Below are positions 3,310 through 19,317 of a DNA stretch of 64,000 bases, in pieces. Below the pieces are notes generated by a model, which was not told the DNA's origin, searched no databases, and saw nothing but the letters and a program-made list of their open reading frames with translations. Positions within the stretch are counted from its first letter, which is position 1. The number at the start of each line of letters is the position of its first letter. The stretch spans positions 1,440,001 through 1,504,000 of the forward strand of contig OZ252100.1 in NCBI GenBank assembly GCA_965248435.1. Reading direction: 5' to 3'. The DNA is from Candidatus Latescibacterota bacterium (GTDB lineage Bacteria > Latescibacterota > UBA2968 > GCA-2709665). Made by a program: the position numbers and the translations under genes.

Positions 3310-3343
3310 TGGTGGTTACTGGATTCATTCCCCGGCCAATGCC

Positions 3344-3432
3344 GTATAACGTTCTCGCGGGCTGCGAACCTGCCGAAGGCAGGTTAGGTCCGAGGCCCGA
3401 AAGGGCCTGAGCCGCGCACGGTCGTGTTATGA
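3344..3432 (-). repeat. attC site 4 (89 bp, short variant)
   Basis: R'' TCATAAC (3432-3426) overlaps the TAA of the upstream gene; R' GTTATAC (3350-3344); central variable stem reduced to aacctgccgaaggcaggtt. Confidence 0.9.
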
Positions 3433-4257
3433 GCCGTGCCGCTCAATTACTGTGATGAGATCATACTCTTCGTGTAATCTGTATCCAAGCTTTAGAGCAA
3501 GACCGTCTGATCGTGGATTTTCGGTGGTTCCCCAATGAGGCTCCTTGTCACTCCTTATGCATTCTGACAGAAGGGCAGCTGAGGCGACAGTTGCAAGACC
3601 TAATTTCTGAAAGCCGTCATCTGTTCCCACTCCCACCTCAATCGAGGATTCACTCACTCCGAAGGAAGTGGCTTCCGCAACTCGTTCACCGTCCTTGAGA
3701 ATCCAAAAACTGATTCCGCCTCGTTCAAAGAATCGTCTCAGCCTGACAAAGGCCAGAACCTTTCTTTCCACATCGATCCCTCTTTCCCTTGCCATTTCCT
3801 CATCGAACCGACGGAGCTCAAATCCAGGCCGCAGCCGACCTCTGAGGTCCGAGAGATGGGTGAGGTCCAGGAACTTTGCAGAGTAAATCTTCCTTCTCCG
3901 TGTCAGGACTCTCTTTTCAATAGCCGAAAGTATAGCCGTGTTCCACTCCTCATTCTCTGGTGTCAAGAGTTCTCCGGTGAACTCGGTACTCCACTGGGGG
4001 TAAGAATTGGCAACAGAAATCCTCGAACAGATTTCCCCAAGACTCGTCAAAGATGGATCCCCGCCAATCAGAACGTCTGAACCCACCCTCAACTTAGCGA
4101 TCCGAGGATTCACAGCATCATCCACGGAAACCTCGACAAAGTCCTTAAATCCGTCGAAATAACCTTCGAAAGTTGCGTCAATATAGGGACGAAGCCTTCT
4201 GTGGCCATCGAACAGGCTGCTACATTGGAACCAGTCTTCAGGTTTCAGTTTGACCAC
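3427..4257 (-). CDS. GNAT acetyltransferase (two-domain); gene cassette
   Basis: C-terminal IEVGVGTDDGFQKLGLA ... NPRSDGLALKLGY; stop codon lies inside attC4 R''. Confidence 0.8.
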   Translation of the reverse strand: MVKLKPEDWFQCSSLFDGHRRLRPYIDATFEGYFDGFKDFVEVSVDDAVNPRIAKLRVGSDVLIGGDPSLTSLGEICSRISVANSYPQWSTEFTGELLTPENEEWNTAILSAIEKRVLTRRRKIYSAKFLDLTHLSDLRGRLRPGFELRRFDEEMARERGIDVERKVLAFVRLRRFFERGGISFWILKDGERVAEATSFGVSESSIEVGVGTDDGFQKLGLATVASAALLSECIRSDKEPHWGTTENPRSDGLALKLGYRLHEEYDLITVIERHGS

Positions 4258-4299: not shown

Positions 4300-4495
4300 A
4301 AATATGATCTATTTGTAGATTATCTTGGTTCGAAGAAGACCTCTGGGGAGGCCGGATTGCGCATGAAGGCATTGACCTTGGACGTTAGATAGGCCCCCCG
4401 CCTTCTTGGCCCATGCCGAGGAGTATCCGAGACCCGAGAGTCTGTATCACAAGGCTGGTAGGCCAGGTGCAAGGTCGGGGGACCAGAGGTACAAA
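4300..4495 (+). ncRNA. Putative bridge RNA of the IS110 element (boundaries approximate)
   Basis: Guides appear in the IS621 order. LTG ATTGCGCAT 4356-4364 matches left target ATGGCTCAT at 7/9. RTG ACGTTAG 4382-4388 is the reverse complement of CTAACGT. LDG GAGTATC 4421-4427 equals the right end 5514-5520. RDG ACAAG 4449-4453 is the reverse complement of CTTGT. Confidence 0.8.
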
Positions 4496-4511
4496 TAAGG
4501 AGGGAGAGATC

Positions 4512-5504
4512 ATGAAGCAAGAGAATCTGTTGGGGGTAGATGTCTCAGCCCGGGAGCTGGTGGTCGCGATCCGTCGCTCAGGGAAAGCGTATCCACTGGC
4601 AAGATTTCCCAACACAGGCGAAGGGCACCGTCGATTGATCAAGTGGGCGACAAAGCGGGGAAAGCCGGCTCGAGTGGGAGTCGAGGCCACAGGCATCTAT
4701 AGTTTTGAGGTGGCGTTGGCGTTGTATCGGCATCCGAAGACTCAGGTGATGGTAATCAACCCCAGAGCGCTGAGGAATTTCTCTCAGGCTTTGATGAAAC
4801 GGGGGAAAACCGACCCGATCGATGCGGAAGTGGCATTGGAGTATGTGCAGCGGATGCCCTTCCAGACGTGGCAGGCACCCCGTGATGAAGTACTTGACCT
4901 GCAGGCGATTACACGCCGGATCGCGCAGATCAAAGTCGAGATCAACCGGGAAGGAAACCGGCTTCACGCTTCCACGCAACGCCCATCGGTCGCGTCTGCG
5001 GTCGCCTTGGACATCGAAGAGCATGTTGAACATCTCAAAGCGCGTGTGCAGCAGCTGAAAGCGCGGGCTCTGGAGCTCATTGAGGGGGAAGCCACTCTGC
5101 GCGAGAAGTTCGCGCGATTGACTTCCGTTCACGGGATCGCAGCAACCAGCGCGATGGGCATTCTGGCAGAGATTTCGATGTTGCCTGCCGACATGAAGCC
5201 TGCCCAATGGGTGGCCTACGCAGGCCTGGATCCACGACCCCACGAATCGGGAGACACGATTCAGAAGCGCCGAGTGATCTCCAAAGCGGGGAATAAGTAC
5301 TTACGAACCGCCTTATATATGCCAGCGCTGGTGGCCATTCAACAGCAGCCCAATGTGAAGGCGTTCTACGAAAAACTCATCAGTCGAGGCAAGAAGCCCA
5401 TGCAGGGGGTCATCGCGGTGATGCGAAAGCTGCTTCACTCCATCTGGGGTATTCTCCAACACAACCAGGACTTCGACGGAGAAAAGTTCTACAAAATGGC
5501 TTGA
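4512..5504 (+). CDS. IS110 family transposase / bridge recombinase (DEDD RuvC-like + Tnp_20 domains)
   Basis: GVDVS, VEATG, KTDPIDA, YAGLDPRPHESG, SKAGNKYLRTALYMPA. Start chosen at ATG 4512 behind an AGGAGGGAG RBS. Confidence 0.95.
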   Translation: MKQENLLGVDVSARELVVAIRRSGKAYPLARFPNTGEGHRRLIKWATKRGKPARVGVEATGIYSFEVALALYRHPKTQVMVINPRALRNFSQALMKRGKTDPIDAEVALEYVQRMPFQTWQAPRDEVLDLQAITRRIAQIKVEINREGNRLHASTQRPSVASAVALDIEEHVEHLKARVQQLKARALELIEGEATLREKFARLTSVHGIAATSAMGILAEISMLPADMKPAQWVAYAGLDPRPHESGDTIQKRRVISKAGNKYLRTALYMPALVAIQQQPNVKAFYEKLISRGKKPMQGVIAVMRKLLHSIWGILQHNQDFDGEKFYKMA

Positions 5505-5521
5505 CCACCAAGAGAGTATCT
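5501..5521 (+). promoter_or_regulatory. -35 half of a circle-junction promoter (pairs with -10 TATCTT at 4292-4297 after excision)
   Basis: TTGACC (5501-5506) + 15 nt of right end + TG (4290-4291) gives exactly 17 nt to TATCTT. Confidence 0.75.
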
Positions 5522-5616
5522 AACGTTCCCGCGGGCTGCGAACCTGCCCAAGCGCAGCGAAGGCAGGTTAGGTCGGAGGCCCGAAAGGGCCGGAGCCGCA
5601 GCCCGACGTGTTAAGT
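5518..5616 (-). repeat. attC site 5 (99 bp; R' now partly IS-derived)
   Basis: R'' ACTTAAC (5616-5610); R' GTTAGAT (5524-5518); body nearly identical to attC4. Confidence 0.88.
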
Positions 5617-7033: not shown

Positions 7034-7150
7034 TGTTTGATACCTGTCGGCACTTGCTGCGACTGGATCACGGTACCGGCGCCCTGGGCGGATGCGAGAC
7101 AACGCGCCTATCCTGGAGAACCACGCATCGTGTCTAGGCACCGGCATTAC

Positions 7151-7225
7151 ACTTAACGATTAAGCGTGTATCCGGAGTCGGAGAAGCGTGGATGGGAGCG
7201 GGATTCCGGATACACGGTGTTGAAC
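7151..7225 (-). repeat. attC-like site 6 (75 bp; different family, belongs to the Int/IS91 cassette)
   Basis: R'' GTTCAAC (7225-7219) and R' GTTAAGT (7157-7151) are both perfect consensus; 15 bp stem 7165-7179 / 7202-7216 (14/15). Confidence 0.8.
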
Positions 7226-7430
7226 GAAGCCGCTTCACCTGCCTATGGGGATTGGATGAGTGATTCTTGTGTAAGGACCGCTGGGCTGGCCCAGTCATCG
7301 GACCGTATTTGAAGCTGTTTGGAGGGGCCGATGTCGCAGGATCCCATAGTCGCTCTACCAAGCTCAAAGAGTGGACAGACTACTGCCGTGTTGGGTGGTT
7401 GGGCTTGCGGGCAAGGGATGGTGTAGGAGC

Positions 7431-8615
7431 TCAAGCTACGGCAACATGTGCCGGAGGCGCTCGCAGAGGCGCGAGGGTTCCGACTGTGAGCATAGGGCCT
7501 CCGCACTGCGCACAGACCTGAAGATCGATGCCTGTTACCCGGAGCAGAAGGTCCTGCCAGGTCGCCTTTGTGGCTGCGGAAGCCGTCGTGCATACAGTGC
7601 CCAGGAGCCTACGGCATCGTGCGAGCTTTTTCCGGCGACCCCGATTGCTGAGCAGTCCGTAGTGCCGGATCTTCACGAAGCCATCCGGCAGGATGTGAAG
7701 CAGGAACCGCCGGATGAACTCGTAGGCATCGACGGTCATCAGCTTCCGTCGGTTGCCGTCCTGGCGGTCCCGGTAGTGGAATGAGACCCGGTCGCCCTCA
7801 CAGGCGACCAGCCGGTGGTTGGAGATGGCGATCCGGTGTGTGTATCGTCCCAGATAGGCCACGACGCGTTCTGGATCCGCAAAAGTCGGCTTGACGTAAA
7901 CGGTCCATTCTCTCTGGTAAAGACCCCGAAGCAGATCGAAGAACGCATCTTCCAGTGGAGCACTCAATCCCGGGAACGCCAGAAGGCCTTCCTGGTGCGC
8001 GTCCTTCAGGAACGCAAGGAACTTCCCCCGGAACAGTCGGGACAGAACTTTTACGGGTAGAAAGAAGCCCCGTCGCGCCGCCTTCCATTCCTGACCGTCG
8101 TGGGTCAGCCCACCTCCAGTTACGATACAGTGCAGATGCGGGTGGTCGATGAGTGTCTGAGACCACGTATGAAGCACGGCGGTAAAGCCGATCTGCGCTC
8201 CAAGATACTTCCGTTCCCGCGCCAGCTCCAGAAGACTCTGCGATGCGGCTTTAAACACCAGGTTGTAGATCAGCTTCTGGTTCCGCAGAGCAAGCGGCCG
8301 CAGGGGCTCGGGCAACGTGAAGACGACGTGGAAGTATGGGATCGGAAGGAGATCCTCTTTACGAGCGTCGATCCATCGTTCGGTCGTCAGGAACTGGCAC
8401 TTCGTACAGTGCCGGTTGCGGCAGGAGTTGTAGGCGATCCGCTTCGCTCCGCAGTGTCCGCACACTTCCACGTGTCCGCCCAGCGCAGCTGTTCGGCAGA
8501 TCTGGATAGCCCGCATGGCCCGCTTCTGCCGAAGCGGCATGTGATCACCGTATTCTACTTGATAGCTGTCTCCGTGGGCCCGGAAGATGTCGGCGACTTC
8601 GAGAGCCTGTGACAT
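7431..8615 (-). CDS. IS91 family rolling-circle (HUH/Y2) transposase with N-terminal Zn-binding domain
   Basis: CRTAALGGH...CGHC...SCRNRHCTKC, HVVFTLP, HTW...HPHLH (HUH), YLGRYTHR (YxxxY), RHYGLL. Confidence 0.95.
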   Translation of the reverse strand: MSQALEVADIFRAHGDSYQVEYGDHMPLRQKRAMRAIQICRTAALGGHVEVCGHCGAKRIAYNSCRNRHCTKCQFLTTERWIDARKEDLLPIPYFHVVFTLPEPLRPLALRNQKLIYNLVFKAASQSLLELARERKYLGAQIGFTAVLHTWSQTLIDHPHLHCIVTGGGLTHDGQEWKAARRGFFLPVKVLSRLFRGKFLAFLKDAHQEGLLAFPGLSAPLEDAFFDLLRGLYQREWTVYVKPTFADPERVVAYLGRYTHRIAISNHRLVACEGDRVSFHYRDRQDGNRRKLMTVDAYEFIRRFLLHILPDGFVKIRHYGLLSNRGRRKKLARCRRLLGTVCTTASAATKATWQDLLLRVTGIDLQVCAQCGGPMLTVGTLAPLRAPPAHVAVA

Positions 8616-8627
8616 GGCCGACCTCCG

Positions 8628-9479
8628 CTACGAAGTCGGCTTGTCTTCATCTCCCAAAAGGTCCAGGGGGCTTCTGATACGCGTGAGGTCCCGGGTGGTG
8701 ACGTGGAGGTAGACGGTGGTGGTTCGAATGCTCGTGTGACCCAACAGTTGTTGGACGAAGCGGATGTCGACTCCGTTGTCCAGAAGATGCGTGGCGAAGC
8801 TGTGACGCAGCGAGTGGACACTCGCACGCTTTTGTATCTCCGCGCGTCGGCAGGCCTGCTCGAAGACTTTCTGGACAGTGCGAGCATGGAGCGGCGCGTC
8901 CGGTCTTTCGCCGGGGAACAGCCAATCGCGAGACGGGTTGGTGCGCCAATAGACGCGGAGTGCCTTTAAGGCCTCCTGGGCCAGAAGCGTCTCTCGCTCT
9001 TTTTGGCCTTTGCCCCGCACACGGATCAGCATCCGGTCACTGTCGATATCGGAAAGCTTTAGCCCGATGGCCTCACTCAGTCTGAGCCCGCCAGAGTAAA
9101 TGACCATCAGCAGCGTACGGTGTTTCAGGTTGTTGGTCCTGTCGATCAGCCGCTGCACTTCCTCTGTGGAGAGTACCACCGGGAGCTTCTTTGCCTTCTT
9201 CGCACGAGGGATGCCCCACTCGACCCAGTCACGCTTCAACGTCGTTTGGAACAGAAACTTCAGCCCGCTGTATACCTGGTTGACATAGCTTTGGGACAGC
9301 TTCCGCTCAGTGATCAGATAGTGCAGATAGGCGCGGATCTCTTCTTCGCTGAGCCGGTCGGGCGGTGTCTTGCAGTAACGACACAGCCCGGCCACTCCGC
9401 TCACGTACGCCTTCTGCGTATCCGGATCTAAACCTTTCAACTGCATGTCCCGGATCATTCGCTTCCGATGCTTGGTCAT
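8628..9479 (-). CDS. Tyrosine recombinase (N-terminal SAM-like + catalytic domain), IS91-associated type
   Basis: YSGGLRLSE, GKGQKER, HSLRHSFATHLL, LLGH, TTVYLHV; 283 aa; lacks the IntI-specific insertion. Confidence 0.93.
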   Translation of the reverse strand: MTKHRKRMIRDMQLKGLDPDTQKAYVSGVAGLCRYCKTPPDRLSEEEIRAYLHYLITERKLSQSYVNQVYSGLKFLFQTTLKRDWVEWGIPRAKKAKKLPVVLSTEEVQRLIDRTNNLKHRTLLMVIYSGGLRLSEAIGLKLSDIDSDRMLIRVRGKGQKERETLLAQEALKALRVYWRTNPSRDWLFPGERPDAPLHARTVQKVFEQACRRAEIQKRASVHSLRHSFATHLLDNGVDIRFVQQLLGHTSIRTTTVYLHVTTRDLTRIRSPLDLLGDEDKPTS

Positions 9480-9630
9480 GGCTCTCTCCTTCTGCTGATG
9501 GTGGACGTTGTTAGCAGAAGGAGGATGCGAAGCACAGAGCCATTTGCAAAGTGGCTCCGGACTTGCACGGTATCATATCCTGGTTGTCAAAGAGCAAAGG
9601 CCTTGCAGCAGGCCACCGCGAAGCGGTTTA

Positions 9631-9712
9631 GTTCAACTTCTGCATTCACGCACCAGGTTCGCTTTTTCGTCCTAATATCCGAGTATAGACGCCGTGCGCG
9701 AATCTGCTAAAT
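9631..9712 (-). other. Array head site: degenerate attC or attI-like site
   Basis: R' GTTGAAC (9637-9631); imperfect stem ATTCGCGCAC/GTGCGTGAAT; the R'' position reads ATTTAGC, one mismatch from RYYYAAC; AT-rich flank. Confidence 0.5.
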
Positions 9713-9814
9713 AATGTATATAATCTGTCCCTGTTCGCGAATGCTTTTCTATAGATACACCTAATATTCCCAACCAGAGGGTTTAATTCATCAGGCTGTC
9801 AATAGGAATGCATT

Positions 9815-10828
9815 TCAACCCTTCCTGACTCGCTCTGCCAATCCCTCTTCCACGAGCTGTCGGTTCAGAAACAGGCCCTTTTCCAGCACTTCCTCCGCCG
9901 CTTCTCCACCTGGCAGGTAAAACAGATCCGCCAGGTACCGATCGTATTTGTCCGGCTTCGTCGTCGTCACGACGACGAACGGCACCCCTTTCAGCGCCTC
10001 CGCGACAAAGTCCCTGGCACGCACGCCTTCCGGCGTCTCGAGTTCTGGCGTGTCGATCCCCCGCAGCCTCACCTTCTGCCTCGCCCACACCCGGAACCCG
10101 CAGTCGATGTCTAGCCAGACCGTATCTCCGTCGATGACGCGCAGAACGCGCGCCACGTAGGTATAGAATGCGGCGGTTCGTTCGGCGGCTTCAGCGAAGC
10201 GGTAGACCTCGGGCCCTTCGCGCGTCGCCTTTAAGAACTGCCCCGCGCGGAGCCCGTCAGCGTCCGGAATCGGCCAGGCGAGCTGAGTCCCGAACCCCAG
10301 GTCCAGCCTCAGGCCGCGCGCCTCGACCAGCTTGTAGGTGTAGAACTGCCCGCGCAATGCCGGCAGCTGTAGCGCTGGCCCTGATCCTGGAACCCGCGAT
10401 TTTGCGTCCGCGAACGCTCCGGACCGGATCTGAGCCTCCAGTTCACGCACGCTCCAGCGATGCTCCTGGGCGGCTGCCTCAGCGGCCTGCCGCTGGGCGT
10501 CTTCTGGGAGCTTCAGCAGGGCCCGGTAATGAGTCCAACCCAATTTTCCACGCGCGTGGAAAATTGGGCGAAATCGATAAAAAGCCACGGCCTCATACAG
10601 AATCGAGTTACTGAGCCCGACGTCGGCCGCAAGCCGCACCAGGGTCTGCTCTCCGTACGTGGCCGGATGCGAGAGCAGGTATTCACTCACCACCCCGCCG
10701 ATCGCGTGGTAGGTGCGCAGCGTCTCACGCTCCACCGCCGCGGCAGCCCTCGCCTTCCCTTCCCGGAGGAGGCGGGTCACTTCAGTCTTCAGAGCGGGGT
10801 ACTCGTCAGCTAGAATCGCTTGTGTCAT
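9815..10828 (-). CDS. DUF1016/YhcG N-terminal domain fused to a thermonuclease (SNase) domain
   Basis: N-terminal LGWTHYRALL, WSVRELEAQI; C-terminal RVIDGDT, VRLRGIDTPE, DKYDRYLA, LNRQLVEEGLA. Confidence 0.8.
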   Translation of the reverse strand: MTQAILADEYPALKTEVTRLLREGKARAAAAVERETLRTYHAIGGVVSEYLLSHPATYGEQTLVRLAADVGLSNSILYEAVAFYRFRPIFHARGKLGWTHYRALLKLPEDAQRQAAEAAAQEHRWSVRELEAQIRSGAFADAKSRVPGSGPALQLPALRGQFYTYKLVEARGLRLDLGFGTQLAWPIPDADGLRAGQFLKATREGPEVYRFAEAAERTAAFYTYVARVLRVIDGDTVWLDIDCGFRVWARQKVRLRGIDTPELETPEGVRARDFVAEALKGVPFVVVTTTKPDKYDRYLADLFYLPGGEAAEEVLEKGLFLNRQLVEEGLAERVRKG

Positions 10829-17059: not shown

Positions 17060-17141
17060 GAACTGAAGATCCTTTCATAGGAAGTTGAATCGACGGGGTG
17101 AACTCCGGGAGGGTGTTCGGCGATCCCTTGCCTGGGAATGA

Positions 17142-17171
17142 GAGAACACCGTTTATTCTTCCTATCCGCTC
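17142..17171. repeat. Direct repeat copy 2 (30 bp)
   Basis: GAGAACACCGTTTATTCTTCCTATCCGCTC; 29/30 identical to 19288-19317. Confidence 0.9.
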
Positions 17172-18923: not shown

Positions 18924-19287
18924 GATTTTGCTGTTCTCCTTTCGTCTGGTACTGTCAAAAGTTAGCGTCTGAGAAGCCGGGAATCAAAAGAATAAAAGCT
19001 CGGTCTGCCGTCACGAGCTCCGCCGATCGCACCTCCACGCCCCCTTCCTCAGACCAAATTCGAATACGCCTGCTGACTCCGCGCCCTTTCCGCTGTCGCC
19101 TTGAGTGCGACCGGGGAGAAGTGCGTCCTCGCGGTGCCCCTTTCGTCTGCAGACAGCCCCACCAGGTCACCTGCCTTCGCCCAGGCTACTGCAAGACATG
19201 GCAACTCGACGATTCAAACGCCCCGCATTAGGCTGGCTCACCCTCCGCTACGCCCGACCCTGAGCTCGATTCCCTGCCAGGCTACGT

Positions 19288-19317
19288 GAGAACGCCGTTT
19301 ATTCTTCCTATCCGCTC
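19288..19317. repeat. Direct repeat copy 3 (30 bp)
   Basis: GAGAACGCCGTTTATTCTTCCTATCCGCTC. Confidence 0.9.

Follow-up and report, generated by a model that had tools for sequence, protein, structure and literature searches.

Insertion sequences (IS) of the ISAzo26 type are IS91-family elements in which a gene for a tyrosine recombinase lies directly upstream of the transposase gene, on the same strand. We describe here an element of this known kind in a stretch of 64,000 nucleotides (nt) from a Candidatus Latescibacterota bacterium (GenBank assembly GCA_965248435.1, contig OZ252100.1, positions 1,440,001 to 1,504,000; the whole stretch is called the window below). Its recombinase (Int) and its transposase (Tnp) are enclosed by ends that resemble those of an integron gene cassette, and its copies sit at integron-type recombination sites. 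A search of the full-text literature, with subscription journals and the texts of ISfinder and TnPedia outside its scope, found no role for the ISAzo26-type recombinase and no account of cassette mimicry or of attI or attC targeting.

In a 2026 paper on IS91, the family is described as having a target tetranucleotide (CTTG, GTTC or GTCC) that abuts oriIS, a terIS end cut at a related tetranucleotide, subterminal palindromes at both ends, no target duplication, and single- and double-stranded circles with joined ends. Canonical IS91, IS801 and IS1294 resemble the window element in the transposase family, the subterminal palindromes, the tetranucleotide at the transposase-distal end, the absence of target duplication and the likeness of the left-end cleavage sequence to the target; unlike the window element, they have no tyrosine recombinase (IS91 has Orf121 instead). 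Their targets CTTG, GTTC or GTCC can lie anywhere, whereas the window element is found at GTTA or GTTG within structured integron sites.

Integron cassettes are bounded by core sites with a crossover at G/TT (a slash marks the crossover throughout), and their R'' box (RYYYAAC) is complementary to the R' box (GTTRRRY). The window element shares with them the G/TT bounds, R'' and R' boxes that would be complementary in a circular form, a hairpin in which pairing is kept, and entry at attI, as the first cassette, or at attC. It differs from them in its size (2.5 kb), in carrying two recombination enzymes of its own and in being multi-copy in a genome without the canonical integron integrase, IntI. 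IS1111-attC insertion sequences, group IIC-attC introns and ISShvi3 of Shewanella are also selfish elements that home to integron recombination sites. IS1111 elements and group IIC-attC introns interrupt attC by other chemistries and, unlike the window element, are not bounded like cassettes.

Genes and boundaries of the element

The two genes of the mobile unit lie on the minus strand, Tnp following Int 13 bases later. The features of the unit and of its target are listed below by window position.

8628-9479, minus strand: Int, tyrosine recombinase of 283 amino acids (Phage_integrase 3.6e-45, Phage_int_SAM_4 1.9e-21)
7431-8615, minus strand: IS91-family HUH/Y2 transposase of 394 amino acids (Y2_Tnp 1.6e-61, Zn_Tnp_IS91 5.6e-32)
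7157-9636, minus strand: mobile unit as a cassette, TTGAAC...G, 2,480 nt, with the crossovers set at G/TT
9631-9637, minus strand: 5' core G/TTGAAC, R'-type, fitting GTTRRRY; the opposite strand reads GTTCAAC; also present in element E2 and at loci L037, L038/39 and L045
9615-9627, no strand assigned: small subterminal palindrome ACCGC-NNN-GCGGT of the 5' (terIS-side) end, conserved family-wide, read by eye; included in the 5'-end pattern used for the metagenomes
7219-7236, minus strand: R''-type GTTCAAC with the inner arm of the 18-nt inverted repeat; GTTCAAC or GTCCAAC in relatives
7165-7216, minus strand: attC-like or oriIS-like hairpin (perfect stem of 12 bp, loop of 28 nt), from folding and arm covariation
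7158-7164, minus strand: unpaired 7-nt spacer CTTAATC from the hairpin to the crossover G; family consensus approximately GCTATTC or CTTWAYC
7151-7157, minus strand: 3' core G/TTAAGT; the unit closes with G 7157, and TTAAGT is target sequence that opens the next cassette
9637-9773, minus strand: attI-like target of ~130 nt (T-site), ending AGAAG/; G 9637 is the crossover base

HUH/Y2 transposases are defined by a HUH motif and a catalytic tyrosine pair, and both were read in the Tnp translation, as HPHLHC (HLH) and AYLGRYTHR (YLGRY). The protein scored 452.7 bits against the IS91-family model NF033538 (cut-off 125). Both the gene pair and its order are those of ISAzo26-type elements, and the recombinase encoded beside an "IS91-like element ISAzo26 family transposase" on plasmid 2 of Aromatoleum aromaticum EbN1 is 47.5% identical to Int, homologues of which occur on 458 plasmid records. 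The plan of the ends is shared as well. ISAzo26 starts with G/TTGGAC-TAAACCGCT..GCGGT and ends with GTCCAAC, a hairpin and a 7-nt spacer, so that the common form is TTGRAC-TAAACCGCT-NNN-GCGGT at the 5' end and GTYCAAC, hairpin and 7-nt spacer at the 3' end.

Six copies of the element in the source genome share identity from window position 7154 (TAACG...) to 9638 (...GTTCAACT) and their flanks diverge beyond these points; assembled pieces from two public runs likewise break at 7154 and 9638. An earlier reading of the window from the sequence alone had placed the boundaries at 7155 and 9637, which was correct to within 1-2 bases. In the direction of the genes every copy follows the same plan. 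On the 5' side, the site ...G/TTGAAC-TAA-ACCGCTTCGCGGT... is followed by Int and then Tnp; on the 3' side, ...GAAGCGGCTTC-GTTCAAC-AC is followed by the hairpin and CTTAATC-G/TTA.... An inverted repeat of 18 nt (89% complementary) pairs GTTGAACGAAGCCGCTTC at 7219-7236 with GAAGCGGTTTAGTTCAAC at 9620-9637 and contains the GTTGAAC and GTTCAAC boxes. The unit thus has core sites with G/TT crossovers and an R'' box, GTTCAAC, complementary to its R' box, GTTGAAC, as in a cassette, and also subterminal palindromes at both ends (7165-7216 and 9615-9627), as in an IS91 element. The claim of the sequence-only reading that the Int and IS91-type genes are bounded as a cassette by GTTGAAC...GTTCAAC plus a hairpin was borne out by the six copies, the inverted repeat and the folded stem. 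Because six copies share these boundaries and the end architecture is conserved across phyla, chance can be excluded as the source of the end motifs. A scan of the window with Rfam at gathering thresholds gave no matches.

Six copies at one family of attI-like sites

The source genome (5.67 Mb in 2 contigs, 97.5% complete) contains six copies of the element, c1 to c6, which are 98-100% identical. All six sit at members of one family of ~130-nt sites, the T-sites. The T-site of the window has the boxes GCATTCGCGAAC and AGATTCGCGCAC and the inverted pair GCGAAC..GTGCGTGAATGC, in the order two direct boxes, inverted pair, 5 nt, crossover. As BLAST of the right flank against the genome returned few members, an nhmmer profile was used in its place; it gave 11 T-sites genome-wide, of which 6 are occupied, two (e1 and e4) are complete and empty, and three are partial. 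The T-sites adjoining the copies are only ~70-75% alike and the flanks further out are unrelated.

The empty site e1 reads ...GAATGCAGAAG/TTAACAG. The empty site e4 reads ...GAATGCCGTAG/TTAAGTGCAATGCCGGTGCC (...CCGTAG/TTAAGTGCAATGCCGGTGCC), which equals the two flanks of the window copy joined together. Comparison of e1 and e4 with the occupied sites thus indicated that insertion was precise at G/TT and that, as in IS91 elements, no target sequence was duplicated. The tetranucleotide abutting the oriIS-like end is GTTA in all six copies and mostly GTTA or GTTG in relatives. The pattern of the IS91 family, CTTG, GTTC or GTCC in otherwise unrelated sites, was not found; the sites belong to the T-site family or are attI or attC.

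Six of the eight complete T-sites (c1, c2, c3, c4, e1 and e4) head host attC arrays, in array orientation. Copy c5 lies within or between arrays, and no array was detected near c6. The element and its relatives occupy cassette positions, in arrays and at attI- or attC-type sites. The T-site at 9637-9773 resembles attI in heading an array and in having its entry point at G/TT, and its box plan parallels that of an attI-like site behind the IntI gene of a related genome (see below). It differs from attI in that no intI gene lies beside it, the source genome being without IntI. The same segment had been taken at first for a member of the host attC family; it belongs instead to this separate, attI-like repeat family.

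Two observations concern the surroundings of these sites. A gene with DUF1016_N and SNase (nuclease) domains (window 9815-10828, minus strand) stops ~40 nt short of the T-site; of its paralogues, one (82% identical) lies ahead of the T-site of c2 and another (72% identical) 3.8 kb upstream of c6. At site e3 (source genome, contig C1, 5351194-5351320), 15 nt of the 5' palindrome region are joined to 10 nt of the 3' hairpin arm.

The terminal hairpin

The arms of the hairpin, 7165-7179 and 7202-7216, are 15 nt long and 93% complementary. When the minus strand of 7150-7240 was folded as single-stranded DNA, a perfect 12-bp stem was obtained at -16.1 kcal/mol (z = -2.9), and 2 of 200 shuffled sequences folded equally well. 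In 20 distinct members of the family the arms vary in sequence while their pairing is kept: at 9 of the 12 stem positions several Watson-Crick pair types occur, for example TA 12, CG 8 and AT 1 at position 6 and CG 11, GC 6, TA 2 and AT 1 at position 8. (Row L137 of the 3'-end alignment is a false end-call and was ignored.) This variety is found at fixed distances from GTYCAAC and from G/TT. Unlike the arms of the hairpin, the outer inverted repeat of 16-18 nt and the ACCGC..GCGGT palindrome are conserved in sequence. By eye, the hairpin arms (GGATACACG) are somewhat like the boxes of the T-site (GCATTCACG), a likeness that was not used as evidence.

Relatives in sequenced genomes

The transposase is present in 3 of 41 related genomes, the source genome included. 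One of the three, a metagenome-assembled genome (MAG) of a Candidatus Latescibacterota bacterium of the same family (G004), contains three copies of an element, E2, whose Int and Tnp are 55% and 61% identical to those of the window element. The ends of E2 are built in the same way: it starts with G/TTGAACAAAACCGCTACGCGGT... and ends with ...GAGCGGCTTT-GTTCAAC-ATA, a hairpin (ATTGTATACGGA and TCCGTATACAAT) and CTTTACC-G/TTA. The first copy of E2 lies at an attI-like site, 179 nt past the stop codon of an intact, full-length canonical IntI gene (464.7 bits with TIGR02249). This gene is transcribed toward the site, in which two direct ATATACAGACC boxes and an inverted pair repeat the plan of the T-site in other letters. 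The second lies behind a truncated version of this intI gene and the third behind an attC-like GCCTAAC hairpin. A fourth transposase copy in this genome (L034, contig C1, 4206087-4207271; 54% identical) is preceded only by an Int remnant of 41 amino acids and appears to belong to a decaying element.

A protein-seeded scan of one genome per species gave 36 loci, of which 7 had the Int and Tnp pair, three of them being the copies in G004. The others were found in a Lutibacter (one), in a delta-proteobacterial MAG (two copies) and in another delta-proteobacterial MAG (one). The Lutibacter contig, 2,511 bp long, is the element itself, starting with GTTGAACTAAACCGCT and ending with ...CCTAAACGTTA. 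The Lutibacter and delta-proteobacterial elements have the same architecture, with G/TT at both junctions.

Relatives in metagenomes

The 5'-end pattern GTTGAACWAAACCGCTNNNGCGGT matched at least 120 metagenome stretches; the counts in this section refer to 80 loci among the matches listed. Of the 48 loci that have 1,100 nt or more of downstream sequence, 44 show Int after the end, and all 33 that have 2,300 nt or more show Tnp. A 3' architecture, defined as GTYCAAC, 12-nt complementary arms 0-5 nt further on, a 6-8-nt spacer and then G, was recognised in 19 of the 22 loci whose downstream sequence reaches 2,700 nt or more; one of the 19 called ends (L088) was mis-registered, and one of the three misses has the plan when read by eye. 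The crossover triplet was GTT in 17 of 19 ends as called, or in 18 with L088 corrected, and the bases beyond it mostly resembled TTAGGC, as is usual for an integron core.

In 13 of the 80 loci, or in 9 of the 37 with at least 1.2 kb upstream, the element is closely preceded by a canonical IntI gene. Eight of these genes are divergent, with the nearest end of the match 147-562 nt from the crossover, and five have the same orientation at 202-231 nt; all six that were tested pass TIGR02249 (419-481 bits). Other copies had entered attC. By a relaxed z-score rule, an attC-like hairpin, starting with a YNAAC box and ending just before the crossover, was found in 10 of 74 upstream flanks and in 4 of 354 control GTT sites on the same contigs. 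Three other rules performed less well: one based on minimum free energy was unspecific (15/69 flanks, 22/146 controls), strict arm complementarity was insensitive (4/69 and 12/1,746), and a single-hairpin z-score was specific and insensitive (4/69 and 0/276). For the 19 loci with both ends a core was restored by joining the flanks, and in four of them it was perfectly complementary to an upstream R'' box; with one mismatch allowed, the restored R'' and R' boxes matched no better than mismatched pairs did (6/19 against 54/310). The attC entered by one copy (L122, 1-111) may resemble that of aminoglycoside-resistance cassettes common in class 1 integrons.

At another locus (L079, 1878-2162), beside an IntI fragment, a gene-less derivative of ~285 nt has kept the 5' end and the 3' GTCCAAC, hairpin and G/TTAGGC. 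It is presumably a miniature version of the element, mobilised in trans.

The homologous pairs, whose flanks the sequence-only reading had proposed to align, thus have (G/)TTGAAC at the start and, at the end, GTYCAAC followed by a hairpin and G/TT, in independent lineages. They lie, as it had predicted, at the GTT of attI and attC sites, and several are directly beside canonical intI genes.

The recombinase

Int matched the IntI model TIGR02249 in two stretches (7-176 and 237-314) with 195.5 bits, below the cut-off of 265, and model NF040815 with 219 (cut-off 220). Model positions 177-236 were unmatched and an alignment with the IntI of G004 had gaps there, so Int is without the IntI-specific insertion and does not qualify as an IntI by score or by domain content. 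In a maximum-likelihood tree of 74 rows the Int proteins of the elements formed one clade (95/99), distinct both from canonical IntI (100/100) and from the Xer proteins of the genome. High-scoring segment pairs containing "*" (E2, L038/L039 and three E1 copies) were left out of this tree and some genes entered it twice through two queries. According to a preprint on their classification, an integron-like subgroup of tyrosine recombinases includes recombinases of IS91 and IS3 elements that are without the IntI insertion. By that text, with which the model scores, the alignment and the tree agree, Int belongs to the group closest to IntI: it shares with IntI the N-terminal SAM_4 domain, the conservation of the catalytic region and the integron-like subgroup, and differs in the missing insertion, the score below the TIGR02249 cut-off and the separate clade.

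The sister group of the element clade consisted of Int genes without a transposase from Paenibacillaceae. In Cohnella and Paenibacillus (L042, 6800-12798; L048, 7400-12100; L043, 7350-12400) such insert-less Int genes, with no IS91 transposase, head runs of small open reading frames (ORFs) on the same strand, and these ORFs are parted by repeats of ~130-230 nt that start with ..CATAACACCATATTCACGC and end with ..GTCGTGAATACAAGAACGTTAT. The runs look like integron-type cassette arrays; no description of them was found in the literature search. A related trace was found in the source genome, where a C-terminal remnant of an Int-type gene ends ~25 nt upstream of the empty site e1 (contig C1, 4954226-4954607), in array orientation. 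The remnant is 58% identical to Int residues 200-273 and bears the Int-like ...TRRDLAQIRNPLD tail; it is Int-type and not IntI-type, which suggests a former platform headed by Int. The Paenibacillaceae arrays and the e1 remnant together indicate that the Int-type recombinase is associated with cassette arrays in its own right.

Host arrays without a canonical integrase

The host attC-like repeats of the window form a family separate from the T-sites (332-486, 1579-1732, 2590-2745, 3343-3444 and 5517-5613). Between them lie minus-strand cassette ORFs for GNAT acetyltransferases and an S51 peptidase fragment. With half-site profiles at least 10 host attC arrays were found genome-wide, for example at 946773-992710, 2055441-2088802 and 3849862-3871856 on contig C1. 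None of the six element copies lies in a host attC, of which there are ~60-70 half-site matches in the genome. Canonical IntI is absent from the source genome: nothing scored above the TIGR02249 cut-off, the top matches being the element's own Int, and tblastn with canonical IntI agreed.

A gene for an IS110-family transposase (NF033542, 201 bits; 4413-5504, plus strand) lies between the attC repeats at 3343-3444 and 5517-5613 and, reading in the direction opposite to the cassettes, may represent another insertion sequence associated with integrons. Elsewhere in the window, a 51-nt direct repeat (17121-17171 and 19267-19317, 84% identical, ending ..CCGTTTATTCTTCCTATCCGCTC) is intergenic. It was considered as another IS91 end and dropped; the adjoining ORFs encode an M20 peptidase and an enolase-family protein.

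Discussion

The window element belongs to a known IS group, of which it is a real and widespread variant that targets integrons. Its boundaries, copy number and end architecture, precise insertion without duplication, the identity of the target and conservation across phyla were observed directly. The flanks of its homologues at attI and attC support well the earlier view of it as an integron parasite of the first cassette position.

The best explanation, which we regard as on balance probable, is a mixed model, with copying out by the HUH enzyme and entry at attI or attC by a tyrosine recombinase. The element would be an autonomous ISAzo26-type element whose termini mimic a gene cassette. Its HUH/Y2 transposase would nick the GTT-containing ends and release a copy of the element in the form of a single-stranded circle, a step that would account for the six copies. 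In the circular form the 3' end (GTTCAAC, hairpin, 7-nt spacer and G) and the 5' start (TTGAAC with ACCGC..GCGGT) would make up one attC-like site, with R'' pairing with R' and the 3'-to-5' junction reading ...CTTAATCG/TTGAAC.... A tyrosine recombinase would then join this folded junction to attI or attC. Where there is no IntI, as in the source genome, the enzyme would be the element's own Int; in hosts that have an IntI it might be that one. Entry into integron platforms would take place at the canonical G/TT, with an attI-type site preferred, so that the element becomes the first cassette, and attC entered too. The circle, the strand used and the enzyme at each step are inferred.

Several points weigh against this model. 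The program that located the 3' ends demanded complementary arms, so the fraction of paired positions is not independent evidence; the variety of pair types is. No obvious extrahelical bases were noticed in the 12-bp stem, and the spacers flanking it are asymmetric (2-3 nt and 7 nt). Textbook attC, an imperfect hairpin with extrahelical bases, appears to differ from the hairpin of the element in both respects, and the R boxes of the element, unlike those of attC, extend into the conserved inverted repeat of ~16-18 nt. The leading G and the 5' end of the metagenome loci were prescribed by the search pattern and do not count as observations. Of the 74 loci that have 100 nt or more upstream, about 50 could be assigned neither to attI nor to attC; many contigs stop at the element. 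The occupied attI sites differ widely in sequence between loci, which is not expected for one type of Int and points to host IntI at work, at least where the host bears an integron. The assembled contigs, from which rare forms are dropped, showed neither a joint between 7157 and 9636 nor an excision product. Outside the integron-targeting subfamily, ISAzo26 itself has A as its crossover base, where the window element has G, and ends A/TTATGC beside the palindromic CCATAA and TTATGG. Relatives on a Sinorhizobium plasmid (L196/L198-L204, NZ_CP023065.1; L195 is the Aromatoleum plasmid) have a GATT core at sites without integron features, in five 5' and three 3' junctions. Last, under a framing of the window element as GTTG...CTTAATC, placed 5' of GTTA, its junctions fit the IS91 rules equally well.

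Because the more distant ISAzo26-type relatives on rhizobial plasmids insert at GATT sites outside integrons, integron targeting has to be regarded as a trait of a subfamily and not of every Int and IS91 pair. In the flank of three of the five Sinorhizobium 5' junctions, an R''-like box without a hairpin, GTYCAATCGACATTYAG, lies 9 nt before the junction.

The rival that survives best is IS91-style transposition alone, with cuts at the terIS-side GTTG and by the oriIS-side hairpin, strand transfer to a GTTR target, and Int as an accessory that might, for example, guide the transposase toward integron sites, serve to resolve multimers or play the part of Orf121 in IS91. We consider it possible though rather unlikely. 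The tetranucleotide, palindrome and no-duplication rules given in the IS91 paper are mirrored in the element, and every one of these points is matched under the framing just mentioned, so sequence alone does not tell insertion by the tyrosine recombinase from insertion by the HUH enzyme. The transposase is a full-length IS91-family protein, the rhizobial relatives lie at their GATT sites outside any integron context, and the ~285-nt gene-less L079 has only the two ends, like the miniature inverted-repeat elements of transposons. However, a 3-4-nt target cannot account for insertion at a T-site in 6 of 6 cases, and it leaves unexplained why 13 of the 80 listed loci lie within ~150-560 nt of intI and why, in attC sites, insertion is at the very base where IntI makes its crossover. 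For these three reasons a purely IS91-type choice of target is argued against. Moreover, T-sites and attI are not hairpins, so exposure of single strands alone gives no reason for the choice, and the abutting tetranucleotide GTTA of all six copies is not CTTG or GTTC.

It is improbable, in our estimate, that an IS91 and Int element became enclosed by cassette boundaries and is moved passively by host IntI only, its own enzymes having no part in entry. The ends do resemble R'' and R' with G/TT, the diverse occupied attI sites adjoin the IntI genes of their own hosts, and the downstream flanks are GTTAGGC-type cores. Against this, six near-identical copies reside in a genome without canonical IntI, which argues against a cassette driven purely by the host integrase. 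Excision of cassettes by IntI is conservative and would not by itself raise the copy number to six. Across phyla the cassette-like ends are conserved along with the genes, and relatives outside integrons such as ISAzo26 have them too; they therefore belong to the IS and were not gained from an integron. Host IntI may still help where it is present, as the diversity of the attI sites used suggests. The possibility that there is no mobile unit, the repeats being segmental duplications of array heads with end motifs due to chance, can be dismissed for practical purposes, for although c1 and c2 share a paralogous upstream DUF1016/nuclease gene, the copies are 98-100% identical while their T-sites are ~70-75% alike and the outer flanks unrelated, empty sites exist, and the same ends occur in other phyla.

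The mixed model offers a concrete role for the unexplained recombinase of ISAzo26-type IS91 elements, and it would link two systems that work on single-stranded DNA, HUH rolling-circle transposition and attC recombination. With at least 120 metagenome stretches, the elements form a widespread selfish class in the first and best-expressed position of integrons, where they would push the resident cassettes away from the integron promoter; this bears on the regulation and decay of integrons. The case described here also suggests that arrays in genomes without IntI may still recombine, by means of the element's Int. More tentatively, and with less likelihood than the mixed model itself, the insert-less Int may be a working cassette integrase, which would join the folded attC-like strand of a HUH rolling-circle copy with attI-type sites and could shuffle host cassettes where IntI has been lost. 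If so, integrase-less arrays would not be inert, and the IS91-associated recombinases, the Int-headed arrays of Paenibacillaceae and IntI would be one functional lineage. Integrons might then have arisen by domestication of such an element, or the element from an integron.

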